Source of the DNA: a virus
Taxonomy: Duplodnaviria > Heunggongvirae > Uroviricota > Caudoviricetes
DNA: 64,000 nt
Direction: 5' to 3' (one strand)
IMG/VR virus record: IMGVR_UViG_3300049444_000130
Shown here: positions 482-25,472 of the stretch, piece by piece
Layout: each line of letters starts with the position of its first letter
Numbering within the stretch: position 1 is the stretch's first letter
Notes under the pieces: generated by a model
What the model was told of the DNA's origin: nothing
The model's input: the letters and a program-made list of their open reading frames with translations, nothing else
Database searches by the model: none
Program-made: the position numbers and the translations under genes

Positions 482-3352
482 ATGGCGGACACCAATCCCA
501 AGATTACGCTGACCGCGCAAGACAATATGAGCGGCCCGCTGACGTCGATTGCAGCGGCCCTCAAGCGCTTGGAGACGGCGGGGGAAGAGAACCTCGCGTG
601 GGTGACCCAGCTCGCCGCTGGCTTTGGCGGTCAGCAACACGCTGCCGAGCAACTCAGTACGGCGCTCCAGGGCGTGCAGACGCAACTGGCAGCGGGCATC
701 ACGGCACAGCAAGCCAACGCCACTGCGACCCAGGGGGCCACCCAGGCACTGACGCAACAAACGCAAGCGGTCACCGCCACCGGCACCGCCTGGCAGTCCA
801 TCCTCAGCATCGCTGGAGGCGTCGGCATTGCCACCAGTATCAGCGCCATTGTCGGGCAGCTCAAGCAGTTTGTCAGCGAATCCGTGCAGCTCGCCATCAA
901 AATGCAATCCCTCACCGCCTCGTTCACGGCGATTACCGGGAGTAGTGCAGGGGCACAGCATGCCCTCGGGTTTTTGCGCAGCATTGCCGTCCAGACCGGC
1001 ACAGATTTCCTGACCCTCGCCCAGTCCTTTAAGAACTTTGAGGCGGCGGCGCGAGGCACAGCCCTAGAAGGCACGAAGGCCGAAGGCGTGTTCCGGGCCG
1101 TAACCGGCGCCGCCCGCGTCATGGGCCTGTCGAGTGCCGATACGGGCCGGGCCTTGCTCGCCCTGGAACAGATGGTGTCCAAGGGCACCGTGTCCATGGA
1201 GGAATTACGCCGGCAGTTGGGCAATGCCCTTCCCGGCGCCTTCCAGATTGCGGCCCGGGCCATGGGGACGACGACCGAAGGGCTCCAGGCCATGCTGAAG
1301 CAGGGCATCGAGAGCAGTGACTTTGTGACCCGCTTTGGTGCGCAACTGCAACGAGAATTTGGCCCGCGCCTAGCTGATGCCGGACAAACCGCCGCCGCCA
1401 CCTTTGGGCGCCTGGGCAATGAAGTGCAAGCGATGGCCACCAGCGTGGGGGCAAGCATCCTGACGATCTTGACCCCGGTAGCCAGCTTTCTCGAAAGCAC
1501 GCTGCGGAAGGTGCGGGAGACGGAAGAAGCGGCGACCCGACGGGCCAAGGTCGGGCTGGGTGGGATTCCCGAAGGCGCCACCGAGCAGGAAGCGGCACGC
1601 CTCCTTGAGTTACAGAAAAACCAAGATGCGCTGCGGGGGCGCATGGCAGGGGGAGGGCCATTCCCGCAATTTCAAGGGCTCACGGCGCAGCGAGAACAGG
1701 CCGAACTGCTTGCCATTCAAGAACAGATCAAAGCCCGTAAAGACCTCAATGCCACGTTCGCGCGGGATGTCGCCCCCTCGCCCCTGCCCGGCATCCCCTT
1801 TGCCACCGAAGCCCGCAACATTCAGAAAGAAGTCCAGACGCTCCGGGACGAACTGAAAGCCACCAATGTGCAGGCGCAGGTCTTCCCCGCCATGAGTCAG
1901 GACAAGCTCCAGAACGCCAAAGATACGCTGAAAATCCTCGAAACCAGCCTGGAGAAATTGGCTGAGCAGATCGCCCAGACCAAAGACAAAGCGCCGGGCG
2001 TGATGGAGGATCAGAAAAAGCTCCTCGCCACCTTGAACCAGGAATATGCCGAGGCCCTCGCCAATGTGACCAAACTGGAGGCCGCCAAAGAAGCGGAAAC
2101 CGAGGCCACCCGCAAAGCCGCACGGGAAGCCGAGAAGGCCGCGCGCGACAACGAACGGCGGACGCGCGACAGTGCCAAGCTCCTAGCGGAGATGGGCATT
2201 GCGGCCCGACTGGCGGACACCACCGCGCAGGCCGGCGGCGATCCCGAGGCCATGCAGGCCGCCAAGAATGCGGCGGAAGAAGCCACGCTGCGGCAGACCA
2301 TTGCGGAGAAGGGGCTGGGCGCCGCGGTGGAAGAAACGGCGGTCGCCTTTCTCCGCCAGAAGCAAGCTGCCGACGACAGCGCCGCCACGATCGCGGTCAT
2401 GGTCAAGGAGCAACGCGACCGTATCCAAGAGCTGGCCAAGGACCTCGATATCTTTGGCCTCAACCTCGCCCCAGACCAGGAGAAAGCCCTGGCCTTCAGC
2501 AAGAAAATCCAGGATGCCCTCGCCGTCGCCCAGGCCCCCAAAGAGGAACGTCCAGAAACCCGCCTCCGTGCCCTGGCCGGGAAAGAAGGCATCCCCCTCA
2601 GCCCTGCCGATGAAGCGGGCTTGCGTCAGCTCACTCTCACGCTCCAAGAACAGGCCCAGGCACGGGAGATGGAGAAGATTACCACACAGCTCGCGAACAA
2701 TATGCGGCAGACGTTTGACACGCTCTGGGAGCAGGTCTTTACGGGGGGCGTGACGTCCTTTCAGCAGCTCGGGCAAGTGGTGGTGCAGTCGCTCCAGCGT
2801 ATGTTTGCGCAGCTCACGGCGCAAATCATGAACATGCTCCTCAATGCGGCGTCCGGGACCATGGACGAGAAGGGCGGCTGGGAGGGAGCGCTCGCACGGG
2901 GGATTGTCGGCGTGGGGCTGGCAGCCCTGGGGGGCAGTGACTTTGGCTCCGATATCCCGGGCATGACGAATGATCCCGCGGTGATTGGGGATCTCCAGAG
3001 CCAGATAAATCTCCTGGGCACCAGCTCAGCGGGGGGCAATGTTTTTCCAGGGTTGGGCACCATTCGCATGCTGGCCGGGGGCGGCATTGTGAATCGCCCA
3101 AGTTTCACCACTATTGCCGAGATGGGCCAGCCCGAGGCCGTGGTCCCCTTGAGTGGTGGGCGGTCGATTCCCGTGGAAATGCGGGGACAGCAGCCTGCCG
3201 GGAATCAGCCCATCGTCATTGAAATTCACAACGATTACACCAATGCCGTCAGCCCGAGTGCACTCAAAACTGGGAAGAAAGAGATTATTCAACATTTTAT
3301 AAGCGACTACAACGCCGATGGGCCGACCCGTCGTACCATCAAGGCAGGATGA
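482..3352 (+). CDS. phage tail tape measure protein (TP901-family core region)
   Basis: 956 aa, Ala/Gln-rich and coiled-coil. Contains the conserved tape-measure core segment ALEQMVSKGTVSMEELRRQLGNALPGAFQIAARAMGTTTEGLQAMLKQG. Many nested out-of-frame ORFs on both strands are GC artefacts. Confidence 0.9.
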   Translation: MADTNPKITLTAQDNMSGPLTSIAAALKRLETAGEENLAWVTQLAAGFGGQQHAAEQLSTALQGVQTQLAAGITAQQANATATQGATQALTQQTQAVTATGTAWQSILSIAGGVGIATSISAIVGQLKQFVSESVQLAIKMQSLTASFTAITGSSAGAQHALGFLRSIAVQTGTDFLTLAQSFKNFEAAARGTALEGTKAEGVFRAVTGAARVMGLSSADTGRALLALEQMVSKGTVSMEELRRQLGNALPGAFQIAARAMGTTTEGLQAMLKQGIESSDFVTRFGAQLQREFGPRLADAGQTAAATFGRLGNEVQAMATSVGASILTILTPVASFLESTLRKVRETEEAATRRAKVGLGGIPEGATEQEAARLLELQKNQDALRGRMAGGGPFPQFQGLTAQREQAELLAIQEQIKARKDLNATFARDVAPSPLPGIPFATEARNIQKEVQTLRDELKATNVQAQVFPAMSQDKLQNAKDTLKILETSLEKLAEQIAQTKDKAPGVMEDQKKLLATLNQEYAEALANVTKLEAAKEAETEATRKAAREAEKAARDNERRTRDSAKLLAEMGIAARLADTTAQAGGDPEAMQAAKNAAEEATLRQTIAEKGLGAAVEETAVAFLRQKQAADDSAATIAVMVKEQRDRIQELAKDLDIFGLNLAPDQEKALAFSKKIQDALAVAQAPKEERPETRLRALAGKEGIPLSPADEAGLRQLTLTLQEQAQAREMEKITTQLANNMRQTFDTLWEQVFTGGVTSFQQLGQVVVQSLQRMFAQLTAQIMNMLLNAASGTMDEKGGWEGALARGIVGVGLAALGGSDFGSDIPGMTNDPAVIGDLQSQINLLGTSSAGGNVFPGLGTIRMLAGGGIVNRPSFTTIAEMGQPEAVVPLSGGRSIPVEMRGQQPAGNQPIVIEIHNDYTNAVSPSALKTGKKEIIQHFISDYNADGPTRRTIKAG

Positions 3353-5891: not shown

Positions 5892-7604
5892 ATGCATCCC
5901 TGGCACCCTCTCCGGCACCCCTGGCTATGCCTGCTGCTCCTGCTCCTGGTCTGCCTTGTGCCTCGTCATGGGACGAGCGCGACCAAGACGGGCCTGATGC
6001 AAGAGGACGCCGGCATTGTCAACGCCCTCAAGTACGGGGCGACCACGACGGCCCGCAATACCACGACGCTCACGGCGGCAGTCGCGGCGATTGGGGCAAC
6101 CCCGAAAACCCTGATGCTCTCTGCGGGCGCCTGGACGCTGACCGCCAATCTCACCATGCCGCCGACGTTGACGCTGTGGGTGCCCCAGGGGAGCACGTTA
6201 GATATCGACAGCGGGCATACGCTCACGCACCAGGGGCCGCTCAAGGTGGACGGCTGCAACCATTTTACGGGGGCCGGGACGATCCTGCTCCCGGCCATTG
6301 CGGAACTCAACGTATGTTGGTTTGGCGCCACGGGGCAACTCGACGTGGACGATACCGCCGCGTTTCAGCGGGCCGCGCGTGCCCTGAACATGACGCCCAC
6401 GGGGGGCCATGCCACGGGCGTGGGCTGTTGTGCGCCGGTCTTCCGCATTCCTGCGGGCTCGTACAAACTCACCGCGCCGATCCAATTTACGCATGGGGTG
6501 TCCATTAAAGGCCACGGCCCCGCCAATACGCTGCTGGTCGCCTTTAATCTGGCCGGGAATACGTTTGAAACGGGGGGCATGAGCGGGACCGCAGCCCGCT
6601 TTGCGGTCGAGGACCTGACCTTCCTAGCGCTCACACCGAAAACGGCAGGGGCCGCCATTCTCGCGAGTACCCCCAATCCGCTCGACGATTCGCAAGTGCA
6701 ACTCTTCATTCACAATGTCTCGTGCCGGGGGCATTTCAACTGCTTTGATCTGCAGAATAGCGCCTATGCCCATATTGTCGACAATATGCTGGAAGACGTG
6801 CGCGGCACGGGCATCGCTATTGCCACCTCCGGCAATCCTGATGCCGGGGACAACGTCATTGCCCATAACGTCATTGCCGGGGCGGCGGGGTCGGTCGGCA
6901 TTAGCGTGCGCACGGCAGGCCAGCGGATCGTCAACAATAAAATCCTGGCCTTTAGTGTGGGCATTAGTGTCGATCCCATCTCCACGACGGTGAATGACAG
7001 CGACATTCTCATTGCCAATAATAGCATCGAACTCCAGGGCACCTTTGGGATTCTCGTCCAAACCAGTGCCCTGGGGGGGCATCTCTACCATCTCCAGATT
7101 ACCAGCAATCAGTTGGCGCTGCTCCAAGGGGGCAGCCCCTCCGCCTCGATTGCCCTGTCCGGGCTGATTTCCTACACGACGATTGCCAATAACCTGATCA
7201 CGATGGCCGCCCAGGAGGGGACCTATGCCATTCTGCTCTCCTCGAATATTCGCGGCGAGACGCCAAGCGGCTGGGCCATTACCGGCAACCATATTGCGGC
7301 CCCGAACCTGACGACGGCCATTGGCATTCAGATCCCCCAGATTACCCCCCTGGAGTATCGCGGGATGGTGATGGGGAACTATGTCACCGGGCTCACAAAG
7401 CCGTATAGCGGCAACACCGCCGCGTTTATCGGGGGGACGTTTACGAGTGCCACCCTCACTGGGTTTGGAGGGCCGGGGTCCATCGTCTATTGCGCGGGCT
7501 GCGGGGTCACCAGCGGGGCCAATAATACCTGTGCGGGCTCAGGGCCGGGTGCCATGGCGATGCTCACGGAAGCCGGGTGGAAGTGTTTCAATAATCAGAA
7601 CTAG
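5892..7604 (+). CDS. secreted right-handed beta-helix (pectate-lyase-like) protein; tailspike/depolymerase-like
   Basis: N-terminal signal peptide. NVCWFGATG motif typical of pectate-lyase-3 domains. Repeated (I/V)xNN(S/K)I beta-helix rungs. The N-terminal ~100 aa are paralogous to those of the 13156..15384 protein. Confidence 0.6.
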   Translation: MHPWHPLRHPWLCLLLLLLVCLVPRHGTSATKTGLMQEDAGIVNALKYGATTTARNTTTLTAAVAAIGATPKTLMLSAGAWTLTANLTMPPTLTLWVPQGSTLDIDSGHTLTHQGPLKVDGCNHFTGAGTILLPAIAELNVCWFGATGQLDVDDTAAFQRAARALNMTPTGGHATGVGCCAPVFRIPAGSYKLTAPIQFTHGVSIKGHGPANTLLVAFNLAGNTFETGGMSGTAARFAVEDLTFLALTPKTAGAAILASTPNPLDDSQVQLFIHNVSCRGHFNCFDLQNSAYAHIVDNMLEDVRGTGIAIATSGNPDAGDNVIAHNVIAGAAGSVGISVRTAGQRIVNNKILAFSVGISVDPISTTVNDSDILIANNSIELQGTFGILVQTSALGGHLYHLQITSNQLALLQGGSPSASIALSGLISYTTIANNLITMAAQEGTYAILLSSNIRGETPSGWAITGNHIAAPNLTTAIGIQIPQITPLEYRGMVMGNYVTGLTKPYSGNTAAFIGGTFTSATLTGFGGPGSIVYCAGCGVTSGANNTCAGSGPGAMAMLTEAGWKCFNNQN

Positions 7605-7670: not shown

Positions 7671-8186
7671 GTGACCCGGACGCTGGTGGCGCCGCGCCTC
7701 GCCACGCCGGTGGGGGGCGGCGCCAGTCAACTGCGCCGGCGCTACGCGCGGCCCCTCTACCAATTTACACTCAACGAGACCCAGAGCACCCGCGCGGAGG
7801 CGACCGCGTTGCTGGGGTTTCTCACGTTTGTGCAGGGGGATATCCCGTTTTTCTGGAGTGGCGGCGAGTGGGGCACGCAGAATACCCCCCTCCTCGTGGG
7901 CTATGGCGATGGCGTGCGCCAGCAGTTCTTGCTGCCCAACCGGTACATCACGGGAAACCTGGAGGTGCAGGTCAATGGCGTGGCGATCCCGACCCCGGGC
8001 CTCGATGGGGCGACCGGACTCCTCAGCCTCCCCACGATTGCCTGGGGGGCCCTGATCACCGCGACCTATACCTGCACGTACCGCGTGACGCTGTGGCAGG
8101 AGGGCGAGACGCTGGCCACCGAGGAGAATATCGCCCTGGGGCTCTTTCGCCGGCAGGGGATCGTGTTCCGGGAATTTCCGTTCTAG
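7671..8186 (+). CDS. conserved phage tail protein, possibly DUF2460/GTA-gp12-like
   Basis: 171 aa. The gene order here (tape measure, this gene, BR0599-like, NlpC/P60, host specificity) mirrors GTA/HK97-like tails. Sequence-level assignment is not verified. Confidence 0.35.
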   Translation: MTRTLVAPRLATPVGGGASQLRRRYARPLYQFTLNETQSTRAEATALLGFLTFVQGDIPFFWSGGEWGTQNTPLLVGYGDGVRQQFLLPNRYITGNLEVQVNGVAIPTPGLDGATGLLSLPTIAWGALITATYTCTYRVTLWQEGETLATEENIALGLFRRQGIVFREFPF

Positions 8187-8283: not shown

Positions 8284-8709
8284 GTGGGGGATGTGGCCGG
8301 CACGACCCTCTACTTTGCGGACGTGCAGACGCCGTTCACGTTCGAGAACCATGCGTACCAGCCGCTCCTCCTGCGCTTTGACGGTCTGAGTCAGGCAAGT
8401 CAGCAGCAGTTGCCGGCGGTCAGTGTGACGGCGCCCAATATTGATGGCCAACTCGGGGCGTGGCTTGAAGTCCATGACGTGTGTGGGCTGATCATTATTC
8501 TGTACCTGTTTCACCTGGACGCAATAGGGCAGGCGACGGAAGCGGATCGGGTCCGGCTCAGTATCCTGGCCGCCGAATGGGATTGGTTGCAAGCAACGTT
8601 GCATTGTGGGTTGGATCTCGGTTTATCTGAGGTGCTCCCAAGAACACTCTATAATGCCCTGGAAGAGCCAGGCAGCCCCGAAGGACTACGCCGTGCCTCC
8701 ATTTTGTGA
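8284..8709 (+). CDS. conserved phage tail protein, possibly DUF2163/BR0599-like (GTA gp13-like)
   Basis: 141 aa from the first ATG. The start may lie upstream at a non-ATG codon. Assignment rests on position only. Confidence 0.3.
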   Translation: MGDVAGTTLYFADVQTPFTFENHAYQPLLLRFDGLSQASQQQLPAVSVTAPNIDGQLGAWLEVHDVCGLIIILYLFHLDAIGQATEADRVRLSILAAEWDWLQATLHCGLDLGLSEVLPRTLYNALEEPGSPEGLRRASIL

Positions 8710-8710
8710 C

Positions 8711-9373
8711 TTACTCTTGCAGCATCCACCAGACGCGCAAGGCGCGTTGCGCGGAGGCCCACGCGGCGGGATCAAAGGGCCGACCGAGGGCCTCCATTTC
8801 GGCCTGGACATGCGCCTGTTCAACGGCAAAGGTGGGAGGCGGCGAGGTCAGGCCCGCGTACATATTTTGGTATTTGACCAGCTGATCCTGCTCGGCTTTG
8901 ACAAAACGGAGCCCGGCAAAATGTATCCGCAATTGCCGGATGTCCATCGTGGACCCCGCGGCGACCAAGCCGACGAACGGAATAAAGCTGGCGGCGTGGG
9001 GCGTCGAGGTCATGGCCACGTAGACCCACGTACTCTGGTCGTCCGGAAGGTACAGGACATCGGCGGGTTGACCATAGCGGCGGGCCAGCGCCTCTTTCGT
9101 CATCGTGGTCGTGAGTGTGCCCGTGTGGACATCGGGCAAGGCGGGGGTGAGGGCCTGGGTACAGCTCAGCAGCATCAGACTGAGCCAGAGAATCAGACAG
9201 CCGAGGAAGGTCTTGCCGGCATCCTTCAGCGCCGTTGTTGTCGTACTCCAGGTATGGAGGCGTGACTGCATGAGTCGTGAAACTTCCTTGCTGGCGGAGG
9301 TGCCGTGCTCCAGGCAGGCAATGCGAAAGGCACGCCACACCGCGTCATCGAGATACAGAGTTACTTTCGTCAC
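8711..9373 (-). CDS. opposite-strand moron: ribbon-helix-helix N-terminus fused to, or overlapping, a lipoprotein (lipobox LLSC)
   Basis: Minus-strand ORF embedded in the + strand tail operon. The N-terminus MTKVTLYLDDAVWRAFRIACLEHGTSASKEVSRLMQ is CopG/RHH-like. Then FLGCLILWLSLMLLSC (signal peptide plus lipobox) and a ~150 aa periplasmic domain. GC3-rich codon usage favours this strand over the antisense ORF 8606..9265. Confidence 0.45.
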   Translation of the reverse strand: MTKVTLYLDDAVWRAFRIACLEHGTSASKEVSRLMQSRLHTWSTTTTALKDAGKTFLGCLILWLSLMLLSCTQALTPALPDVHTGTLTTTMTKEALARRYGQPADVLYLPDDQSTWVYVAMTSTPHAASFIPFVGLVAAGSTMDIRQLRIHFAGLRFVKAEQDQLVKYQNMYAGLTSPPPTFAVEQAHVQAEMEALGRPFDPAAWASAQRALRVWWMLQE

Positions 9374-9430
9374 CGTCGTCTCCTTTGCCTATGCATTCAT
9401 ACGTCATTACGTAAAGCAGTCTATCAACCC

Positions 9431-10258
9431 ATGCGTGCTTCGGCAAGGACAGCTATGAAAATTCTTGTGGCTGGTCAACCGAGATCTGGCACGAGCGCCC
9501 TGTTTTTCCAGCTCCAACACGCCATGCCCCCAGACACCCTGACCCTCTTTGAGCCTGCCACCTTGGACGGGACGGGCTGGGACACGGCGCCCCAGAGTGT
9601 GGTGAAAACCCTCGTCGCCAGTCTCCCGGGGGACACCACCCCACCGGTCGACCCCCTGCTGTTTGACCGCCGGTATGTGCTTGTGCGTGACCCTCGGGAC
9701 CGGCTCATCAGTCTGCTCCTCTTTCTGCCGCACTGGAGCACTGCGGCGTATCCGCCGCTCTGGCGCACGCGCGCCCTGGAGTTAAGCCACTATGTCGCTA
9801 CCCTCCGCACCAAAGTCCTCGACCCCGCCCGCGTGCCGACGTGGCTCCTCTTTGAGCGCTGCATGCGACTGCGCTTCGGCTGGCGGCATGGCGAGGCGCT
9901 CCCGACGCTGCACTACCTCCAACAGACGTTTCTGCACTGGCATGCCACCCTCCCGGACCACGAGACCGTGTTCTATGAGGCGCTGACCATGGCGCCGTGG
10001 GGGCAGGGGGTGGATGCCCTCCTCCCACGCGCCTACGCCCGCGTGCTCCGCCGTGGGCTGGTTGGTGAGTGGCGCCAGTGGTTCACCCCCGAGGATTGCG
10101 CCTATTTCCGGCCCGTGTTTCAGCCGTACCTGACCTGGTATGGCTATGACAATGACTGGACCCTCTCTGACACGCCCCAGATTGACCACGCGACCAGCAT
10201 CCGCTATCTGGAGACCTGGCTGCGCGTTGACAGGAGGGCTGCCCGTGCGTCTGCCTGA
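9431..10258 (+). CDS. sulfotransferase-fold protein (PAPS-binding motifs)
   Basis: KILVAGQPRSGTSALF resembles the 5'-PSB P-loop (PKSGTTW). YVLVRDPRDRLISLL resembles the 3'-PB motif (RNPRDxxVS). The track ORF starts at 9305; an in-frame start at 9431/9455 is more plausible. Confidence 0.5.
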   Translation: MRASARTAMKILVAGQPRSGTSALFFQLQHAMPPDTLTLFEPATLDGTGWDTAPQSVVKTLVASLPGDTTPPVDPLLFDRRYVLVRDPRDRLISLLLFLPHWSTAAYPPLWRTRALELSHYVATLRTKVLDPARVPTWLLFERCMRLRFGWRHGEALPTLHYLQQTFLHWHATLPDHETVFYEALTMAPWGQGVDALLPRAYARVLRRGLVGEWRQWFTPEDCAYFRPVFQPYLTWYGYDNDWTLSDTPQIDHATSIRYLETWLRVDRRAARASA

Positions 10259-10643
10259 TCCAGCGCCCGTCCTGGCCGCTCTGCAAGCGCTCGTGCTCCA
10301 GCACGTGCCGTGGTCCCAGGGCGGGCTCGATCCCGCCACGGGGCTGGGGTGCTATGGGCTGGTGGCACTCGCGTTCGCCCAGGTGGGTATCAGCCTCCCC
10401 CCCACGGCGGAGGAGGGGCAGGACTGCTTTACGATGATTCCCCCGCCGTATCAACCGTTTGATGTGGCCCTGATGCGCTTTGCATCCCCGCTGACGGCCC
10501 GGCATGTCGGGGTACTGCTCACCCCGACGACGGGCTACCAATGTTCCTGGCTCACGAACGGGGTGTCACAGTTTTGTATTCACGAGAATATCTGGAAACG
10601 CACCTTTCGGCATGGCTTGCGGTACAAGGAGTTTCTGGGATGA
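10245..10643 (+). CDS. NlpC/P60-family cell-wall peptidase (lambda gpK / GTA gp14-like tail protein)
   Basis: GTG start with a GGAGGG RBS overlapping the upstream stop. A GLGCYGLV catalytic Cys context and a downstream HVGVLL His. The stop overlaps the next gene's ATG (ATGA). Confidence 0.55.
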   Translation: MRLPDPAPVLAALQALVLQHVPWSQGGLDPATGLGCYGLVALAFAQVGISLPPTAEEGQDCFTMIPPPYQPFDVALMRFASPLTARHVGVLLTPTTGYQCSWLTNGVSQFCIHENIWKRTFRHGLRYKEFLG

Positions 10644-13156
10644 GACTCACCGTCACCGCGCCCTTTGACCACGAGCGCCACCTGCAAGTCCCTGCCGTCC
10701 CGGGGCAGACGCTGGGGACCTGGTTCCAGCCCCACGTCTACGAGCACATCACCGCCTGTATGGTCAATGGAGCCTTTCGCGACGACTGGCCGGCCTACGA
10801 GCCCCAGCCCACCGATCACATCCGCCTGTACCTGCGCACCGGCGCGCTCTTTACCCTCGGGGCCACCGCCACCATCTGGGGCATCCTGGCCACTGCCGCC
10901 ATCACCGCCGCCGTCAGTACGGGGGTGTCGATAGGCCTCGGGATGATCATGGGGAAGTTACGGAGCAGCGGGTCGGGGGGAGGCGTCACGCCGCATCAGA
11001 CCGAAGGCAAGGCGGAAAGTGCGTTCGGCATCAGTGGGCGCACCAACACCACGGCCCAGGGCACCCCGAAACCGCTCTGTTACGGCCACCAGCGCGTCTA
11101 TGGGCATATCTTGACGACGCGGGTGGCCCTGGCCGATGAGGGCCGCGCCCTGGCGTTCGGCATCCTGTACAGCCTGGGGGAAGGCCCGGTGGCGTCGGTG
11201 TACAACCCCCAGATTGACGATGTGGACCTCGCCCAGTTTCCGGGAGTCGAGGGGTATTCCCGGCTCGGGGGGGCCGACAATGCCGCGCTCATCCATGCCG
11301 ACTTTGCCACCCTCTCGCAAGTGTGGAGTGATGGACGCCAGCTCCCGCTCGCGCAACCCCTCATCTATCAGACGCGGAGTAGTCGCACGACCAAAATCAC
11401 CCTGTTTCTCTTTCTCCCCTTCCTGCGCACGGCGGAGGGCCTGGCGGCGGGGATGCATTTCCAGGTCGAAGTCCGCGCCATTAATGACCCCACCTGGATT
11501 CTCGCCTCTGCAGCCGTGTTCTGGAGCGGCCTGAGCAACGCGGGGCGCTTCTTCCCGCTCGACTACACGCTGCCCAGCGCCAATCAATGGCTCGTCCGCA
11601 TTACGCTCCTGGATACCACGGTGCAAGAAGGCGTGCTCCCCACGCTCTACGACGTGATGGAAGAGCAAGACGGCAATCCGCTCTATCCCACGCTGGCACT
11701 GTTGGCCATCCGAGGCATCTCCTCGGCGCAGATCCAATCGTTTGACGCCATGCGGGGGTCGGCCATGGTGCAGGGGCGCCTCGTGCCGGTCTGGAACGGG
11801 ACGAGCTTTACGACGCAATGGTCGCAGGGCCGCGCCTGGGTGCTGTACGACCTGCTCACCGAACCCCGGGTCGGGCTCGGGCATCGCCTCGATCCGTCCC
11901 TCATTGATGTCGCCTCGTTCCATTTCGCGCAAGGCTACTGGGATGACCAGGCGGGGGCCAACGTCAACATCGCCCGGGATCGCTGTAACGTGCTCATCAA
12001 TGACCGCCGCCCGGCCTGGGATTGGATCAAACTGCTCCTGGGAGAAGCCCGGGCCGCGCTGATTCCGTCGCAGGGCCTCCTCAAGCTCGTGGTCGATCGC
12101 CCGGGCGAGCCCGGCTTGCTCTACAGTCACCCGGGCAATATCGTGGAAGGCACGGTCCAGGCGAGCCAGGGGAACGGCCAGGGCGTGCGCCCCAACACGA
12201 TCTTCGTCCAATTCCCGGATGAGGTGATTGCCAACCGGCCCCACCTCCTGATCTACCGGGAGCCGGGCAGCGAAAGCGAGCCGCAGCGGGAAGCTCCGGC
12301 GGTGACGCTGGTCAGTCTCAGTGGGTACGAGCATGCGTACTGGATGGCACGCTATACGCTGTTGCGGCAGCGGCTCGTGCAACGGCAGGTAAGTTGGCAC
12401 AGTCCGCTCGGGGCGCTGGTGTCGGAACCATTTGACCATGTGGCCGTGAGTTACGATACGCCCAATTTTGCGCGGGGCACCTCGGGGTTTCTCAGTAGCG
12501 ATAGTACGGTGGACCGCCTGGTGCTCGATCGCCTCGTCACCCTCGAACCCGGCCAGGGCTATACAGTCCTGGTGCGCCATCAGGCCACGAATAGCATGGA
12601 GAGTCGCGCCGTCCTCGGCACCGGCGCGGTCGCCGTGGGGGTGCTGCTCCTCACCGCACCGCTCGGCACGGTGCCCGACGCGGGAGATCTCTACGCGCTC
12701 GGGGTCACCAATACCGCCCTGCACCATCTCGTGCTGGAGCAGGTCACCCAGGACGGAGACCAGGGCTGGCAGCTCGTGGGCGGGGTCTATGCGCCCACCC
12801 TGTATGACTATCCCGTGCCGCCGGCCTCGCCGCTCCCCGCGCCCGCACCGCTCAGTAGCAGTGCCGGGCCGCCGGAGGCACCCCTGCTCGAGGGCGTGGA
12901 AGACACGGAGGGGGGCTTTCTCATGCTGACCTGGAGTCTGCCGGCCGTGCCGGCCGGGGATAGCCTCGTGGGCTTCCACGTGTGGTTTAGCGTCACCGAT
13001 GAGGTGCATTTTCTCTTCTACGGCGATATCGGCATGGAGACGACCATGATTCGGACACTCACCGGGCAGGCCCCAGGCTGGTACGCCGTGCGGGCGCTCA
13101 GTACCCTCGGGGGAGCAGGCCCGCTCTCCAACCACTTTCATGTCGCGGGGATCTGA
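10640..13156 (+). CDS. host specificity / central tail fibre protein (lambda J-like, GTA gp15-like)
   Basis: 838 aa immediately after the NlpC/P60 gene with an ATGA overlap. A large beta-rich protein with a C-terminal FN3-like segment (LTWSLPAVPAGDSLVGFHVWFSV). The track ORF starts further upstream, at 10541. Confidence 0.6.
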   Translation: MRLTVTAPFDHERHLQVPAVPGQTLGTWFQPHVYEHITACMVNGAFRDDWPAYEPQPTDHIRLYLRTGALFTLGATATIWGILATAAITAAVSTGVSIGLGMIMGKLRSSGSGGGVTPHQTEGKAESAFGISGRTNTTAQGTPKPLCYGHQRVYGHILTTRVALADEGRALAFGILYSLGEGPVASVYNPQIDDVDLAQFPGVEGYSRLGGADNAALIHADFATLSQVWSDGRQLPLAQPLIYQTRSSRTTKITLFLFLPFLRTAEGLAAGMHFQVEVRAINDPTWILASAAVFWSGLSNAGRFFPLDYTLPSANQWLVRITLLDTTVQEGVLPTLYDVMEEQDGNPLYPTLALLAIRGISSAQIQSFDAMRGSAMVQGRLVPVWNGTSFTTQWSQGRAWVLYDLLTEPRVGLGHRLDPSLIDVASFHFAQGYWDDQAGANVNIARDRCNVLINDRRPAWDWIKLLLGEARAALIPSQGLLKLVVDRPGEPGLLYSHPGNIVEGTVQASQGNGQGVRPNTIFVQFPDEVIANRPHLLIYREPGSESEPQREAPAVTLVSLSGYEHAYWMARYTLLRQRLVQRQVSWHSPLGALVSEPFDHVAVSYDTPNFARGTSGFLSSDSTVDRLVLDRLVTLEPGQGYTVLVRHQATNSMESRAVLGTGAVAVGVLLLTAPLGTVPDAGDLYALGVTNTALHHLVLEQVTQDGDQGWQLVGGVYAPTLYDYPVPPASPLPAPAPLSSSAGPPEAPLLEGVEDTEGGFLMLTWSLPAVPAGDSLVGFHVWFSVTDEVHFLFYGDIGMETTMIRTLTGQAPGWYAVRALSTLGGAGPLSNHFHVAGI

Positions 13157-15384
13157 TGCAGTTACCTCGATCGCTCCTGCTCGGAGGGCTCTTCCTACTC
13201 GTGCTGGCCCGGGCCAGCACGGCGCAACCCTATGGGCCGCCCTACCATACGCTCAATCAAGAAACCATCGGCATGGTCGACATCGCCCGCTCGCCGTACG
13301 GCACGGCCCTGAATTCCGCCACGTTGGCCGCCGCCGTAACGGCCCAGGGCAGCGCGCCCCATTTGCTCCTCCTCAAGTGCGGCACGTGGACCTTGACCAC
13401 CAGCCAGGTCATCCCCGAGACCTTACGCCTCTGGGTGCCGCTGTGTACGACCGTGACCGTGGGCGCGGGCGCCATCCTCACGCTTCAGGCGCCGCCGCTG
13501 GTGGATCAAGAACAATGGTGGAGCGGTCCAGGCCAGGTGGTCTTGGACTTTGTGGTCACCCCACCTCATACCGCCGTCGGGGCCGCCGGCAGTCTCCAGG
13601 CGGCAGATGGGCTCGGGGGCCTGGCGGCGTATAGTGGGTCAGGCGCCTGTGCCGCAGGCCAGTTTATGTCGGAGCTGCTGCCCACGGGGCTCAAAATCTG
13701 CGGCACGCCGGTCTCCCCCAGTACCACGGGCCATCTGCTCACCGACCGCGTCGAGCCGCTCATTCCCAACGCCATCAATCTGGGCGCCCTCTCCTCCGGC
13801 TTGTTGCGCACGACCACCAGTGGTGGGGTGGCCGCCGTGACCACCGTGCCCCTGCCCGCAGGCGCGCTCGTCGGGACGGACGCGGTACAAACGCTCACCA
13901 ACAAATTTGTGGCCCTGCGCGTCGTGCCCGAGGCGACCAATGTCACGCCCGTCGTGATTGACCTGTCGAATACGGATATGACGGTCATCAGTGAGCTGCT
14001 GCAAAATACGCTGATCACCGATCCCCTCGGCAGCTCCGGGACCGGGCAACTCCTCTGGATGCTCGTGCATTCCACGCTCCCCCGGCTGCTCACCTGGAGT
14101 GCCACGTGGACGGGCGACAGCGGCATCCCGCTCCCCACCACGACCACGGGGGGGAGTACGTTTGATCTGTTCGCGTTCCTCTACAACCCCATCAGCGGCA
14201 AATTGGTGCTCGCCTACAATTCCCAACTCCTGCGGCCCGATCCCGCCTCGGGGGTCACCCCTGGGGCCTACACCTGCCCGGCCACGCTCAGCGTCGATGT
14301 GCATGGGCGGATTACGGCCCTCACGAGTGGCACCTGTGGTGGGAGCAGCGGCACGGCGGCGGGGGTCAAAGGCGATGTGCAGCTCAATGGCGGTGGCGTG
14401 CTCGCAGCGGACACCGGCACGCTCTCGCACGATGTCTCAAGCCACATCACGTATACGCAGGGACTCCAGGCGGGCGCCGGCAGTGGCTATGTGGAGTTGA
14501 CCGATGTCCACGGCTTCAAGGGCTGGCTGTTCCCCAGTGATCTGACCAGCGAGCGGGCCTGGAAGCTTCCCAACACGAGTGGCACGCTGGCGCTCCTCAG
14601 TGACATCACCGCCGGCAGCGGCGCCGCGATTAGCGGGGTCCCGACCACCGGCCAACTGGCGACATGGACCAACGCCACCACGATCCAAGGCGTGACCGCA
14701 CTCCCCGCCGCCAACTTCCCCGCCTTGACGGGGGACGTCACGACGACGGCAGCCAGCCTCACGACCACCATTGCGGCGGGGAGCGTCAGCCTGGCCAAGA
14801 TGGCCAATCTGGCCACCGCCACCCTGATTGGCCGCACCACGGCAGGGACCGGCGTGCCGGAAGCATTGACGGTGCTCCCCGCCGCGCTCGAACCGGCGCA
14901 CACGGGGGACGTGACCAATAGCGCCGGGTCGCTCGCCCTCACCATTGCGGCCAATGCGGTGACGTCCGCCAAGATGGCGGCGGCGAATACCTTCCGCACC
15001 TGTACGATGCTGGCGGGGGTGGACAATGGGCCGGTCTTAGTCGATGCGGACCTGGGACCGCAGCTGCACCAGTGTCTCGTGCCGGTCGCCTCCACCATTG
15101 TGGAAATTGTCGTCTATGCCGATGCCGGCACGCCTAACGTGATTGTTCATCGTCGCACAGGGACGACGAATACTGCGGTCCTCAGCAGTGCCCTGGCGAC
15201 GGCGGCCAGTGGGGCGCTCGCGTGTAGTAAGACGACGGGCGTAGCCGGGATTGCAGGAACGACCTGTAGCGCCACGCTCCAAAATACCACGGTCGGCGCG
15301 GGGGATACGCTGGGGCTCACGAGTGGGAGCGCGGGCGGAGTCGCCAAGCGGATGAGCGTGGCGATTGTCATGACCGTCAACTAG
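13156..15384 (+). CDS. tail fibre-like protein with signal-peptide-like N-terminus
   Basis: 742 aa and Thr/Gly/Ala-rich. Internal repeats LTGDVTTTAASLTTTIAAGSVSLAKMANLAT and HTGDVTNSAGSLALTIAANAVTSAKMAA. The N-terminal domain is paralogous to the 5892 protein. Confidence 0.5.
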   Translation: MQLPRSLLLGGLFLLVLARASTAQPYGPPYHTLNQETIGMVDIARSPYGTALNSATLAAAVTAQGSAPHLLLLKCGTWTLTTSQVIPETLRLWVPLCTTVTVGAGAILTLQAPPLVDQEQWWSGPGQVVLDFVVTPPHTAVGAAGSLQAADGLGGLAAYSGSGACAAGQFMSELLPTGLKICGTPVSPSTTGHLLTDRVEPLIPNAINLGALSSGLLRTTTSGGVAAVTTVPLPAGALVGTDAVQTLTNKFVALRVVPEATNVTPVVIDLSNTDMTVISELLQNTLITDPLGSSGTGQLLWMLVHSTLPRLLTWSATWTGDSGIPLPTTTTGGSTFDLFAFLYNPISGKLVLAYNSQLLRPDPASGVTPGAYTCPATLSVDVHGRITALTSGTCGGSSGTAAGVKGDVQLNGGGVLAADTGTLSHDVSSHITYTQGLQAGAGSGYVELTDVHGFKGWLFPSDLTSERAWKLPNTSGTLALLSDITAGSGAAISGVPTTGQLATWTNATTIQGVTALPAANFPALTGDVTTTAASLTTTIAAGSVSLAKMANLATATLIGRTTAGTGVPEALTVLPAALEPAHTGDVTNSAGSLALTIAANAVTSAKMAAANTFRTCTMLAGVDNGPVLVDADLGPQLHQCLVPVASTIVEIVVYADAGTPNVIVHRRTGTTNTAVLSSALATAASGALACSKTTGVAGIAGTTCSATLQNTTVGAGDTLGLTSGSAGGVAKRMSVAIVMTVN

Positions 15385-15902: not shown

Positions 15903-16429
15903 AGCAGCGGTCCTCTCTCCTCCACGGATTTTTGGCCACCATGCTCCTCATCGCCTGGTACGTGTCCCCAAGTTGGGGCGCGGCTGTGGTCACTACCTGG
16001 AAACGGGGCGCCGTCGATACCTGGCTGACCAACTCGACCGATGTCACCAATAACAGTCTCATTCTCAGTAGTGCCATTACCATTACGAACACAGGCTATA
16101 CCTTCGCAGAGTGCCAGATCTTTGTGAATAGTTTTAGTGGCACCGTTACGGCGAATACGGCGATTAGTGTCTGGCTGTTGACGGAAGTGGACGGGACCAA
16201 TTATGACGATGGAGGGACGTCGGTCACCCCGGCACGCCTCCCGGACATCGTGTTTCCGCTCCGGGCGGTCTCCACGGCACAACGCGTCGGGGTGAAGAAT
16301 GTCCAAGTCCCAGCAGGACTGTTTAAGGCTTTGGTGAAAAACGATGGGACCGGGGTCACGATGCAAGGGAGTACGGGTGGTGTTCCGTGGACTTTAAAGT
16401 GTGTGCCTCAGACTACTCAGAGCCAGTAA
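15899..16429 (+). CDS. secreted hypothetical protein
   Basis: Start ATG overlaps the upstream stop (ATGA). Signal peptide MKQRSSLLHGFLATMLLIAWYVSPSWGAA. Beta-rich. Confidence 0.4.
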   Translation: MKQRSSLLHGFLATMLLIAWYVSPSWGAAVVTTWKRGAVDTWLTNSTDVTNNSLILSSAITITNTGYTFAECQIFVNSFSGTVTANTAISVWLLTEVDGTNYDDGGTSVTPARLPDIVFPLRAVSTAQRVGVKNVQVPAGLFKALVKNDGTGVTMQGSTGGVPWTLKCVPQTTQSQ

Positions 16430-16437
16430 GGAGACGC

Positions 16438-17397
16438 ATGCGACGACTCCAACTCTGCTTGCTTCTGCTTCTGCTCCTGCCAGGGGGACTTTGCGCCCAG
16501 CGCCCGAACCTGGATGGAGCGCCGCCCAGCGCCAGTGGCGTACTCGATACGCGCCATCCGATCCGACGTCAGCACCCCCTCGCCCGGGGCTTGATCGGTG
16601 CCTGGCGCGTCGTGCCCGGCCTCAGTGGCGGGGTGATGCTCTATGACCTTATGGGCCAGGTACACGGCACGCTCACCGGCATGACGACGGCGGTGACCAC
16701 CGGCTGGAATGGCACGGCCAGGCCGGGCGGGGATGGGGAGTTGCGCTTCAACAATACCGCCGCGACCGTCGCCCTGGGCGCGCCAGCCAGTCTCAACCTC
16801 ACGGGGGTGATGTCGCTCTTTGTCTGGGCCAAGCCCCACCTCCTCGTCTTTGGTGGGGGCGGCGGGGATCCCCTCGTCAGCTATGGCGAGAGTGCCAGCC
16901 CGGACGAGCCCTATGGCCTGCTGATCGGTCGGGCCGATAACGCGGTGAGTGTCCGATGGAACGATACCGATGTCCTCGTGAGTAGCGCGAGCATCCCGAC
17001 GATTGACCGCTGGTACCATGTCGGGTTTACCCGCAGCGGCAGTAGTGGGAGCTGGCCGACGGTCGTCTATGCCAATGGCGTGTCCATTGGCTCGGCCACG
17101 GTCACGACCAATCCTGCCGGAGTCGCCGGCGCCGGCGTGCTCAATTTTGGCAAGCGCGGCGCCGCGGGGGCCTTCCTCGACGGCGCCCTCGATGAAATCC
17201 TCATTTACAACCGGGCCCTCTCCGCACAGGAAGCCTACACCCTCTATGTCCTATCGGCACAAGGGCTCCCCGGCTTGCTCAACCGGGTGCTGCCGCTGGC
17301 CGTCGCCGGGTCGGGCGTCGTGCCCATGCCACGCAAGCCCGTCCAATGGAATTGGCTCCTCGACTCATTCTGGAGGTATGCATATGTCCCTGACTAA
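16438..17397 (+). CDS. secreted LamG (concanavalin A-like lectin) domain protein
   Basis: Signal peptide MRRLQLCLLLLLLLPGGLCAQ. The C-terminus WYHVGFTRSG...FLDGALDEILIYNRALSAQEAYTLY is the classic Laminin_G_3 signature. Confidence 0.55.
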   Translation: MRRLQLCLLLLLLLPGGLCAQRPNLDGAPPSASGVLDTRHPIRRQHPLARGLIGAWRVVPGLSGGVMLYDLMGQVHGTLTGMTTAVTTGWNGTARPGGDGELRFNNTAATVALGAPASLNLTGVMSLFVWAKPHLLVFGGGGGDPLVSYGESASPDEPYGLLIGRADNAVSVRWNDTDVLVSSASIPTIDRWYHVGFTRSGSSGSWPTVVYANGVSIGSATVTTNPAGVAGAGVLNFGKRGAAGAFLDGALDEILIYNRALSAQEAYTLYVLSAQGLPGLLNRVLPLAVAGSGVVPMPRKPVQWNWLLDSFWRYAYVPD

Positions 17398-18900: not shown

Positions 18901-20757
18901 GTGGTGCGTCATAACAACACATGGACTCGTCTCACGCTGGCCCTTCTCTTGCTCCTATGGTTTAGTCACTCAGCGTACTGTCTGGAATATTTTGTATCGA
19001 CAGGAGGGAGCAACGCCAATTCCTGCACCGCCGCCAGAACGGTCAGTACGGCCAAGCGGGATATCAACAACGCCACGGGCTGCCTCGCCAGCGGCGATAC
19101 CGTCACTGTGAAAGCAGGGCTCTACGCCGAAGGCAATGTTCAGCTTCCGTCCGGCTCCGCCGGCGCCCCCACCACGATCCGCGCGGCCCCGGGGGAAACG
19201 GTCACGCTCCAGCCCAATAATATTAGTATCGACCAGATTATCAAACTGAACACCGGTCAGAGCTATATTACGATTGACGGCCTGATTCTTGACGCCGGCA
19301 GCCCCACCGGCACGCGCCTGTCCTTTGGCACGGTCGTCAATCAGGACCACGACAGCCCCTCCGGGCATCACTTCACGGTCAAAAACTGTGAGGTGAAGAA
19401 TGGGCGGCATCAGGGGCTCCACATTGCCGGCGCGAACTGGACGGTGGAGAATAACCATATTCACCACAACGGCACCGACGTGGATCTCGATCACGGGATC
19501 TATTTTTCGGCCCACGATAGCCTCGTGAAGAATAACAACATTCATGACAATCGCTGTTTTGGCATCCAGAACTACTCCAGCACCTTCACGAACGTGAACA
19601 ATAACACCTACATCGGCAATACGTTTACGGCCAATGGCTGTGGCGTCGTCATCTCCCAGGGCAGTGGACACCTGTTCATGAACAATGTCATGCATCACGA
19701 CGCCACGCGGGGGACCGTCCCGGCCTTTCGGTGTTGCTCCGATGGGAAGTACTATAACAACACCATCGTGAATAATGTCGGGAGTTCCGGGCTGGAGGGC
19801 TATGGTCCCACCCTGGGCAGTGGTGTGATCATCAAGAACAATATTATCTGTGGCAATAATGGCGCCCAGATTGGCAGCACCGGCGCCACGATGAGCAATA
19901 ACCTGACCACCTGTCCGACGTTCGTCAATAGTGGGGCGAACGACTACCACCTGGTGACCGGCAGTGCGGCGTTAGGCGCGGGAACCACGCTGACCGAGGT
20001 CACGACCGACAAAGACGGCGTGCCACGCCCGCAACCGCCCGGGGGCGTCTATGACATTGGCGCCTACGAGGGCACGGGCAGCGGGGGGCCGCCGCCTGAT
20101 CCCCCGCTCGCCGAGCAGATGTTCGCGCGATGGACGCTCGATGAGGGCACGGGGACGAGCGCGGCGGATGCCACGGGCAATGGCCGCACGGGGACGCTCT
20201 CCGCCAGTGGGCTGTGGAGTCCAGGCCGGGTCGGGAAATTTGCTATTACCATGGGCGTCACCGATATGCTGACCGCTCCCACACTCTGGCCCCTCACGGC
20301 CTATACGTGGGCCTTCTGGCTCAAGGCGGCGACGGCGCCCACGGTCGGCGTGGGGGAAGAGACGCAGCCGTTCTTTTACGGCGCGCAAGCCACGCCGGCG
20401 TTTTGGTTCAGCTGGTCGCATGTGACCGTCGGGGCCGATCAAGCCGCGGCGCAGCAAGATACGGGTGGGGGGAATACCCGGGCGCGCATTGGCAGCACCC
20501 TCCTGGCGAATCGATGGTATCATCTGGCCGCGACGTGGGACGGCACCACGCTGAAACACTACCTCAATGGCGTGCTGCAAGCGTCCACCGCCATCTCGAC
20601 CATGTTCACGCCCGTGGGGCCGGTGTCGGTCGGAAATGGGTTTGTAGGGAGCGTAGATGACGTGCGGCTGTATAACTTCCCCCTCGATGGGGCGGCCATC
20701 CTGGTGCTGTACCGGCAGAGTGCGGGCATGCCTCGGCACAGAATGAGTATGCGATAA
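18901..20757 (+). CDS. secreted right-handed beta-helix protein with C-terminal LamG domain
   Basis: Signal peptide. Repeated NN(N/T)xIxxN rungs typical of the pectin-lyase fold. A C-terminal LamG signature: WYHLAATWDGTTLKHYLNGV...GSVDDVRLYNFPLDGAAILVLY. Confidence 0.5.
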   Translation: MVRHNNTWTRLTLALLLLLWFSHSAYCLEYFVSTGGSNANSCTAARTVSTAKRDINNATGCLASGDTVTVKAGLYAEGNVQLPSGSAGAPTTIRAAPGETVTLQPNNISIDQIIKLNTGQSYITIDGLILDAGSPTGTRLSFGTVVNQDHDSPSGHHFTVKNCEVKNGRHQGLHIAGANWTVENNHIHHNGTDVDLDHGIYFSAHDSLVKNNNIHDNRCFGIQNYSSTFTNVNNNTYIGNTFTANGCGVVISQGSGHLFMNNVMHHDATRGTVPAFRCCSDGKYYNNTIVNNVGSSGLEGYGPTLGSGVIIKNNIICGNNGAQIGSTGATMSNNLTTCPTFVNSGANDYHLVTGSAALGAGTTLTEVTTDKDGVPRPQPPGGVYDIGAYEGTGSGGPPPDPPLAEQMFARWTLDEGTGTSAADATGNGRTGTLSASGLWSPGRVGKFAITMGVTDMLTAPTLWPLTAYTWAFWLKAATAPTVGVGEETQPFFYGAQATPAFWFSWSHVTVGADQAAAQQDTGGGNTRARIGSTLLANRWYHLAATWDGTTLKHYLNGVLQASTAISTMFTPVGPVSVGNGFVGSVDDVRLYNFPLDGAAILVLYRQSAGMPRHRMSMR

Positions 20758-20977: not shown

Positions 20978-21541
20978 ATGGCCCTCCCCCCGAACACGCC
21001 CAGCAGCGCACCGCCGGCCTCGACCCTGGTGACGCCCCTCAAAGGCCCCACGATCTCGGCCTGGCATCGACCGGACGCGCCCGTGAGTTTCACCATCCCC
21101 CCCGTCGTGTTCCTCGGGCTCTTAGTGGCGTGCATGGCGTTTGCGGCGGTGCTGACCTGGTTTGTCCTCTACCACCAGGCCCGTACGGACGAGACGCTGG
21201 CCGCCCTCGTGACCAAGACGGAGACCGCCCTGCGGGGGCTCGACGGACGCCAGGACACGTTAGAGCGGGCGCAACAGGAGATGCTGCGGGAACAAGCCCG
21301 ACGCACCGCCCTGGTCGTACAAATTCCCGCGGTGCAGGCCCTTCTCCAGGCCCAACAAACGCATATGAGTGACAATACCATCACCCTGAAAGCGGTTGAG
21401 GATAGAGCAACGACGAATGCCCAGGCGATTGGCGAACTCAAAAAAGAGACGCTCGATCTGCGCGTGCGGATGAACGATTTGTTGTATGTCAAACGGGTCC
21501 ATCCCCCACCGAAAAAGGAGCGCCCGTATGACGCTCCCTGA
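20978..21541 (+). CDS. membrane-anchored coiled-coil protein (N-terminal TM)
   Basis: TM helix VVFLGLLVACMAFAAVLTWFVLY followed by a long coiled coil. Confidence 0.4.
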   Translation: MALPPNTPSSAPPASTLVTPLKGPTISAWHRPDAPVSFTIPPVVFLGLLVACMAFAAVLTWFVLYHQARTDETLAALVTKTETALRGLDGRQDTLERAQQEMLREQARRTALVVQIPAVQALLQAQQTHMSDNTITLKAVEDRATTNAQAIGELKKETLDLRVRMNDLLYVKRVHPPPKKERPYDAP

Positions 21542-25059: not shown

Positions 25060-25103
25060 GGTTGCGGTTGTAGAAGGCGGTGGTACGCGCGGGAACCTAG
25101 CGC

Positions 25104-25472
25104 TTACACGGTGCTCGTCCCCTCGACCCCCCGACGCAGCCGCGCCTCGGTGCGCATGTGAAGCCAGTCCATGGCCATGATCACCGCGTCGAGGGCCTCG
25201 GCGTTCTCCTGACAGGCGTAGGGACCCGCTTGGAAACATGCCAATCGATCCCGCACCACCGCCAGGAGCGCCTCGTTCGAGACGCCGTTGGCACCCGCCT
25301 CCGCGATGGGGCCTTCCTGAAAATGGAGATCCCAGTGGAGCAGGTCGAGGCCATCACGAGGAATATGCAGATGATACTGATGGCACGCCCCACCGGCGCC
25401 CGGTTCGTCCAACACGGTGATCGTAATCGCCTCGTTCAGGCCCTTGACGGTATGCGTCGTAATGGTTCTCAT
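25104..25472 (-). CDS. hypothetical phage protein
   Basis: 122 aa ORF with GC3-rich codons and consistent spacing in the - strand operon. Confidence 0.35.

Follow-up and report, generated by a model that had tools for sequence, protein, structure and literature searches.

A putative sulfotransferase gene in the tail-tip operon of a lambda-like temperate phage clade

The virus record IMGVR_UViG_3300049444_000130 (Caudoviricetes) of IMG/VR was analysed as one stretch of 64,000 nucleotides (nt), referred to below as the window. Among the tail genes of a lambda-like phage it carries a gene for a predicted sulfotransferase (ST), whose fold and cofactor site for 3'-phosphoadenosine 5'-phosphosulfate (PAPS) are well supported by sequence profiles and by a structural model. 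The gene lies between the genes for a gpL-like and a gpK-like tail protein and occupies this junction in six phage lineages: a known kind of enzyme in an unusual, conserved place, and a stable yet dispensable accessory gene of the tail operon. The function favoured here is the sulfation of an envelope polysaccharide of the host. For this whole chain of assumptions, including the target on the host surface, a probability of about 0.45 is assigned.

Fold, cofactor site and family

The open reading frame (ORF) spans positions 9305 to 10258 on the plus strand of the window. Translation from the ATG at 9431 yields the roughly 275 amino acids (aa) reported in an initial annotation of this DNA, which had been made from the sequence alone. 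An in-frame ATG at 9455 yields 267 aa starting with MKILVAG and is the likelier start on sequence grounds, because MKILVAG is the N-terminus of all homologues and the gene calls on the identical contigs L015 and L016 have 267 aa. The sequence AAGGA sits 7 nt 5' of this codon. Residue numbers refer to the 275-aa version throughout. The gene and its motifs are as follows.

9455-10258, plus strand: ST gene, 267 aa (alternative 275 aa), defined by the ORF, homologues and gene calls
9476-9496, plus strand: 5'-phosphosulfate-binding (5'-PSB) loop QPRSGTS, with R18 at the position held by Lys in most sulfotransferases; counterpart of PKSGT in an alignment with SULT7A1
9551-9553, plus strand: Glu41, candidate catalytic base by analogy; belongs to a conserved FEP motif that the secondary structure of the AlphaFold2 (AF2) model places directly behind strand 2
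9605-9613, plus strand: Lys59-Thr-Leu on strand 3, counterpart of K-T-H in the cytosolic SULTs, with Leu at the His position according to the family counts
9686-9712, plus strand: 3'-phosphate-binding (3'-PB) motif RDPRDRLIS with R86 and S94; the aligned segment in chains of SULT2A1 (bile-salt sulfotransferase) is RNPRDVLVS
10049-10087, plus strand: third canonical motif RRGLVGEWRQWFT, residues 207-219; precisely the part spanned by the Pfam and PDB alignments
10049-10096, plus strand: C-terminal PAPS motif RRGLVGEWRQWFTPED; aligns to RKGVSGDWKNHFT of SULT2A1

QPRSGTS and RDPRDRLIS had already been recognised in the initial annotation and were found at these positions. The third motif, RRGLVGEWRQWFT, had not been listed there; it fits the nucleotide-binding pattern R-K/R-G-x-x-G-x-W-x-x-x-F-T, and with it the set of three PAPS motifs is complete and correctly ordered. 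In the AF2 model, which has a mean predicted local distance difference test (pLDDT) score of 90.4 and a predicted template-modelling (pTM) score of 0.89, QPRSGTS (residues 16-22) directly follows the strand formed by residues 9-15, and RDPRDRLIS (86-94) falls at the junction between strand 80-85 and helix 88-101. The protein is soluble; it has no signal peptide, and strand 1 starts at residue 2 of the 267-aa form.

Searched on its own, the ST scores 21.7 bits against the 22-bit cut-off of Pfam Sulfotransfer_1 (PF00685) with a match that comprises the C-terminal motif only (residues 204-232), and NCBIfam and PHROGs contain no match to the protein. A database search retrieved 18 homologues. The more distant ones carry PF00685 (P0010, P0011, P0013, P0015 and P0018 pass the cut-off), as do 19 of the 41 family members with at least 350 aa. 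In the alignment of the 18 homologues the invariant columns are PAPS-binding residues (K59, R86-D-P-R-D90, S94, R207, G212, W214, W217, F218 and D222). The corresponding profile matches solved cytosolic sulfotransferases in the PDB at an E-value of 7e-9 (HMMER), and Teg12/14, StaL, CurM-ST and Stf0 are also among the matches. In the profile search that the initial annotation had proposed as a check, relatives of the protein exceed the Pfam cut-off and the single protein falls just short of it.

Structure prediction, the second check proposed, turned out in favour of the assignment. In both fold searches sulfotransferases rank above kinases, and the protein qualifies as a member of the sulfotransferase fold. 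TM-scores to SULT-type structures reach only 0.3-0.47, so the substrate-binding helices differ from those of the cytosolic SULTs. Phage and giant-virus proteins of the sulfotransferase fold in BFVD match the model weakly. A P-loop kinase or NTPase was considered and rejected, since the fold ranking is against it and a Walker-A motif, GxxxxGK[ST], is absent; the chance resemblance to such a protein against which the initial annotation had cautioned is disfavoured by motif, profile and fold alike.

At E-value limits of 1e-3, 1e-10 and 1e-30, an exhaustive profile search of 1.84 billion cluster representatives returned 3,394, 1,065 and 773 relatives, respectively. The family is large and uncharacterised, related to Pfam Sulfotransfer_1 and barely captured by current libraries. 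Residues were counted in 170 aligned family domains. The basic residue of the 5'-PSB loop is Lys in 138 domains and Arg in 27, the phage clade having Arg. G20 is kept in 167 domains and T21 is also conserved; Glu41, 23 residues after R18, is found in 165, Lys59 in 167, and R86 and S94 in 169. Every PAPS-contacting motif is conserved within the phage clade as well as across the family. Because the motif residues are 97-99% conserved over these domains, the ST appears to be a working enzyme, and its sequence makes it very probable that it is active and PAPS-dependent.

The catalytic centre sets the family apart from the best-known relatives. Cytosolic SULTs (SULT7A1, SULT1B1, SULT2A1, SULT1E1) carry their catalytic His two positions after the Lys of strand 3, whereas nearly all family domains have Leu, Ile, Val or Met there, one has Gln and none has His. 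The ST is therefore not a strict SULT-type enzyme. In heparan-sulfate sulfotransferases and tyrosylprotein sulfotransferases (TPSTs) the general base is a Glu in a comparable place, about 20-28 residues behind the basic residue of the 5'-PSB loop. By analogy, Glu41 would be the general base of the ST, which would work most like the Glu-base carbohydrate sulfotransferases. Heparan-sulfate sulfotransferases are eukaryotic Golgi proteins, unlike the soluble 267-aa phage protein, and neither they (NDST1 domain, 3-OST-5) nor bacterial glycan sulfotransferases gave a significant HMMER match to the ST profile. Alignments of the family by hhalign with TPST2 and SULT1E1, for which approximate sequences were used, were partial, and the one with TPST2 comprised the P-loop only.

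A conserved place between gpL and gpK

The left 21 kb of the window represent a lambda-like tail module, in which the ST has the following surroundings.

8284-8709, plus strand: gpL-like minor tail protein, 141 aa; phrog_396 minor tail protein, E 0.006 (weak)
8711-9373, minus strand: lipoprotein-like accessory gene, 220 codons; orthologue in L001, called as a 220-aa gene on L015 and L016
9374-9454: AT-richer spacer of 81 nt that separates the ST from the divergently oriented minus-strand gene, GC content 0.49 versus about 0.62-0.65
10233-10258, plus strand: coupling junction seen in the sequence, with GGAGGG at 10233-10238, the GTG start of the K-like gene at 10245 and the TGA stop of the ST at 10256-10258
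10245-10643, plus strand: gpK-like NlpC/P60 tail-tip peptidase, 132 aa; Pfam NLPC_P60 29.6 bits, E 7e-7; phrog_329 minor tail protein, E 1e-8
10640-13156, plus strand: gpI+gpJ-like central tail fibre/host-specificity protein, 838 aa, with ATGA as the overlap between its start and the stop of K; match to phrog_31 'central tail fiber J', E 9e-51

The initial annotation had placed the gene between a BR0599-like (gpL) gene and the NlpC/P60 peptidase gene. The peptidase gene indeed adjoins it; on the other side, the minus-strand gene and the 81-nt spacer separate it from the gpL-like gene. The name BR0599-like goes back to weak matches only (phrog_396 in the window, Phage_tail_L in the L001 orthologue), and the gpL-like protein is 43-59% identical in all related loci.

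Translational coupling to the peptidase gene, also proposed initially, was confirmed and is kept in four lineages. The 3' end of the ST overlaps the start of the gpK-like gene by 14 nt in the window, and overlaps of 14-20 nt with GGAGG in the last ST codons occur in the window, L001, L007 and L018, which are all the lineages that show both genes. Two of these, L007 and L018, have a further overlap at the 5' end of the ST, whose start codon shares the sequence ATGA with the stop codon of gpL; the resulting tight L-ST-K-J arrangement leaves no room for an intergenic promoter. A scan found no terminator-like site between ST and K, and promoter and terminator scores around the ST did not exceed shuffle expectation. 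Because there is no such terminator and the ribosome-binding site and start of gpK lie within the ST 3' end, the ST would be read from the same transcript as K and I/J. The 81-nt spacer is a possible regulatory region; the scan detected no sigma-70 consensus match in it.

In composition the gene resembles its neighbours. GC content overall and at third codon positions is 0.652 and 0.79 for the ST, 0.637 and 0.75 for K, and 0.659 and 0.82 for J, and the pattern of GC over the codon positions is likewise similar. Flanking repeats suggestive of a mobile cassette were not found, PADLOC gave no defence matches, and Rfam gave none between 7500 and 11000. The initial annotation had considered a moron. 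The gene does lie between genes that are adjacent in relatives, which is one of three features by which morons are recognised; the classical architecture with its own promoter and terminator is absent, and so is a difference in composition. A classical moron was rejected on these grounds.

All of the nearest homologues of the ST (40-62% identity) occupy the same L|K junction in uncultured phage contigs. The lineages with the gene are those of the window, L001 (the same contig as IMG/VR UViG 3300047409_000788), L002 (L002/L003), L007, L011 and L018. Minus-strand genes intervene between L and ST in some of them, lipoprotein-like in the window and L001 and Bro-N-like in L002. Three relatives lack the ST and have L, K and J contiguous, namely L012 (J 50% identical to that of the window), L013 (44%) and L014 (45%), which bears out the initial view of an insertion into a normally contiguous series. 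The K gene of L014 (6126-6509, plus strand) was recognised by tblastn with 51% identity beneath two minus-strand gene calls, which are probably annotation errors. As a separate observation, a tail-region protein of the ST-less L012 (6275-7561) has a weak match to Chondroitinase_B; chondroitinase B represents a lyase family for sulfated glycosaminoglycans.

ST identity to the window ranks the lineages in the same order as K and J identities do. Since these ranks agree and the composition of the ST equals that of K and J, the data fit one old acquisition followed by descent with the tail module. In a neighbour-joining tree of J, computed without support values, the ST-less L012 pairs with the ST-bearing L018, so the gene must have been lost or exchanged at least once. 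Together with the existence of relatives lacking it, this means that the ST is not needed to build the tail.

A scan of viral contigs with the J-like protein gave no further relatives, and a metagenome scan with the J alignment added one short locus, L011. Genome contigs scanned with the alignment of the phage-clade STs contained only distant bacterial homologues (26-33% identity) and no prophage of the clade. When 50,697 phage records were searched by tblastn for the ST, nothing matched at E ≤ 0.01. The nearest isolates for J are lambda-like phages with only 24-27% identity.

Substrate and proposed function

Evidence on the substrate comes from the family at large. Among the 41 members of at least 350 aa, 11 carry a glycosyltransferase family 2 (GT2) domain, and other fusions involve GT1/GT4, WbsX, PIG-L de-N-acetylase (2), Wzt_C, methyltransferases and further sulfotransferase domains. 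Stand-alone homologues have similar company. That of Sporichthya brevicatena (L021) is found near GT1/GT4, UDP-glucose dehydrogenase, UDP-GlcNAc 2-epimerase, polysaccharide deacetylase and a further two sulfotransferases; the neighbours of L019 include GT2 and GT1; L020 adjoins GT2 and a tail-fibre-type protein with Peptidase_S74; and L004, on a mobile element, adjoins a second sulfotransferase. Small-molecule pathways are not indicated by any family fusion or neighbourhood. Because glycan enzymes dominate among fusions and neighbours, the sequences point to polysaccharide sulfation or biosynthesis as the business of the family, unlike the cytosolic SULTs, which act on small molecules. The glycan substrate that the initial annotation had offered as an option is favoured by this family-level evidence, and if the ST is active, the odds are clearly on the side of a glycan.

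The fusions include some elaborate architectures. Two bacterial family members, P0071 and P0097, unite a PIG-L de-N-acetylase, a GT2 glycosyltransferase and a sulfotransferase in one polypeptide, an arrangement reminiscent of the logic of the eukaryotic heparan-sulfate N-deacetylase/N-sulfotransferase. The Wzt_C domain borne by another member is an O-antigen-export recognition domain.

In the model that we infer, an ancestor of the lambda-like temperate siphophage clade would have gained the ST at the gpL|gpK junction, and the gene would then have descended together with the tail module, with occasional losses. The product would be a cytoplasmic enzyme made from the same transcript as K and I/J. 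It would use PAPS of the host, as suggested by the lack of a PAPS-synthesis gene among the window proteins scanned, which likewise include no glycosyltransferase. PAPS would be bound via R18, G20 and T21 of the 5'-PSB loop, R86 and S94 of the 3'-PB motif and the R207...W214 motif. Glu41 would act as general base, as its counterparts do in heparan-sulfate and tyrosylprotein sulfotransferases, and the sulfate would be transferred to a sugar hydroxyl or amine of a glycan accessible from the cytoplasm. The likeliest target would be a lipid-linked intermediate of the host O-antigen, capsule or extracellular polysaccharide. Such a glycan would be of the kind probably recognised by the beta-helix and lectin-like tail proteins of the phage itself; its genes at 5892-7604, 16387-17397 and 18901-20757 code for proteins of beta-helix, pectate-lyase-like and Laminin_G_3 type, which would give the phage a glycan-directed tail. 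The changed surface receptor could then exclude related phages or shield the progeny from re-adsorption.

Precedents for such a role exist among temperate phages. The gtrABC glucosylation and Oac O-acetylation systems, which cause seroconversion and superinfection exclusion, are likewise accessory enzymes that act on receptor polysaccharide, and the phage described here has depolymerase-like tailspikes. The ST differs from gtr and oac products in using PAPS sulfate, in being soluble instead of membrane-bound and in its position in a late tail operon.

Several points weigh against host-surface sulfation. Known seroconversion genes map close to the integrase and are active in lysogens; the ST has no integrase or att site next to it and lies about 33 kb from the integrase gene. 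Its late co-expression with tail genes would come at an unfavourable moment for remodelling a surface polysaccharide and is a weak point of the model. Having no glycosyltransferase or PAPS-synthesis genes of its own among the proteins scanned, the phage would have to rely on host PAPS and glycan intermediates, and on a host that makes a suitable polysaccharide. The enzyme itself is slightly atypical, with Arg in place of the usual Lys in the 5'-PSB loop (the state of 27 of the 170 family domains) and a Pfam score just below the cut-off.

Timing and place would be as expected if the ST modified the virion instead, and this is the main rival explanation. The enzyme would sulfate Tyr, as TPST and RaxST do, or a glycan on J, on a fibre or on a tailspike before assembly, and would thereby alter charge, receptor binding or stability. 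The gene lies within the tail-tip operon and shows coupling to K, to which two lineages add coupling to L; L018 has a glycosyltransferase and a methyltransferase gene downstream of the tail genes, and phage enzymes are known to glycosylate virions in mycobacteriophages. A PRSGT loop with Arg, followed by a Glu after strand 2, is the arrangement of TPSTs, and there are TPST-like fold matches. Against this, Arg and Lys interchange within the family, in which Arg is the minority state, so that the Arg is no TPST signature. TPST1/2, tick TPST and RaxST share no HMMER-level similarity with the ST, no TPST is among the 42 PDB matches obtained with HMMER, and the hhalign comparison with TPST2 described above was restricted to the P-loop. 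Family fusions and neighbourhoods indicate polysaccharide synthesis and not protein or peptide substrates, and sister phages with a 45-50% identical J lack the ST, so the tail can do without it. Virion modification is therefore considered unlikely.

Still more doubtful is a small-molecule, lipid or metabolite substrate, such as a sulfolipid, signalling molecule, toxin or antibiotic, with the ST as a fitness gene at a tolerated insertion site. The L|K junction does take unrelated cargo (the lipoprotein-like gene in the window and L001, the Bro-N-like gene in L002), and the fold relatives include small-molecule enzymes (SULTs, StaL, Teg12/14). Other phage sulfotransferases have been treated as metabolic genes (PMC10580990). 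The dominance of glycan enzymes in family fusions and neighbourhoods speaks against such a substrate, as does the absence of the His that is catalytic in the SULT, StaL and Teg enzymes; moreover, the ST co-diverged with the tail genes over six lineages without changing its place. A pseudoenzyme that serves as tail assembly or chaperone factor, or a P-loop kinase-like protein, could be imagined from the position amid tail assembly genes and from the Arg at the place of the usual catalytic Lys, and is very improbable given that all PAPS-contacting motifs are conserved in phage clade and family, that sulfotransferases outrank kinases in both fold searches in the absence of a Walker-A motif, and that close relatives assemble tails without the ST.

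Earlier annotations of phages already include sulfotransferase genes, such as Sulfotransfer_3 in genomes of OM43 phages and Synechococcus phage S-SRM01, and their function was stated to be unclear (PMC10580990). They belong to another subfamily than the ST, as the tblastn search of phage records indicates, and are not placed in a tail-tip operon in the literature examined. The 'PAPS reductase/sulfotransferase' morons of Burkholderia phages are CysH-type reductases and have another fold. A literature search for the phrase 'phage-encoded sulfotransferase' yielded no paper and no description of a phage sulfation system. Phages acetylate or glucosylate host surface glycans and glycosylate their own virions; sulfation is, to our knowledge, not among the modifications described for phage systems.

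The ST is locked in the tail-tip operon across six lineages, which ties an enzyme to the adsorption machinery and makes it a testable question whether receptor or tail is sulfated by the phage. A wider claim, that this clade uses sulfation as part of its tail-gene programme, either on the tail tip and fibres or on the host receptor polysaccharide during particle production, is tentative and on balance rather unlikely. If true, it would mean the first sulfated virion, or progeny and competitors being repelled from infected or lysogenic cells. Apart from the phage, a large subfamily of glycan-associated sulfotransferases without the catalytic His (about 1,000 cluster representatives), barely seen by Pfam, has come into view and can help to annotate bacterial pathways for sulfated polysaccharides.

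Neighbouring genes and the remainder of the window

The other features of the window are listed here.

482-3352: tape measure
5892-7604, plus strand: pectate-lyase-like beta-helix protein (Pfam, PHROGs)
7671-8186, plus strand: gpM-like gene, similar to g12 of gene transfer agents (GTA); Pfam DUF2460, E 0.0067, below the cut-off; position conserved in related loci
13156 onwards: fibre- and lectin-like proteins
43110-43982: tyrosine integrase, about 33 kb from the ST
50004-50603, 51362-52582, 53027-55576, 56558-57823 and 60209-61519: F-type conjugation genes TraE, TrbI, TraC/VirB4, TraH-like and TraU, respectively

Because the integrase is followed by F-type conjugation genes, the element is a lambda-like temperate prophage adjoining or within a conjugative element. 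No tRNA was found in the window. The best named relative of TraC comes from a metagenome-assembled genome of Candidatus Tectimicrobiota (52% identity; plasmid relatives have about 25%), which is a weak clue to the host.

The minus-strand ORF upstream of the ST (8711-9373) is, judged from conservation, a real gene. Its L001 orthologue is 59% identical over residues 71-220, and its true start is probably internal because the first approximately 52 of the 220 codons are not conserved there. The conserved part opens with a signal-peptide-like segment that ends with LLSC, followed by CTQALTPALP, with a conserved Cys71 and then a conserved mature part; BamE and phrog_3135 match weakly. The product looks like a phage lipoprotein moron, possibly involved in superinfection exclusion.

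The 838-aa protein downstream of K appears to be a gpI-gpJ fusion. It matches phrog_32 'tail assembly protein' at residues 107-201, followed by the phrog_31 region, and is TipJ-related according to NCBIfam. The gene is called with 838 aa on the identical contigs, and its tblastn matches in lambda-like isolates span the I and J genes.

Four plus-strand genes (5892-7604, 13156-15384, 16387-17397 and 18901-20757) encode putative receptor-binding proteins, which display two beta-helix (pectate-lyase/NosD-like) and two lectin-like Laminin_G_3 domains. The N-terminal 120 or so residues of the proteins starting at 5892 and 13156 recur in tail proteins of L001, L002 and L014, which suggests a common attachment module with swappable distal parts. 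Minus-strand genes of the non-structural half of the prophage encode an SPFH/Band-7 protein, two DNA methyltransferase-like proteins (one weakly D12-class, one N6_N4_Mtase) and a Bro-N protein (24427-25239, 33716-34852, 36010-38430 and 41363-42094). Just downstream of the tail-fibre genes, a 176-aa protein (21486-22016, plus strand) matches the N-terminal part of the ethylene receptor ETR1, a transmembrane domain that binds ethylene and copper (PF25487, E 6e-28).

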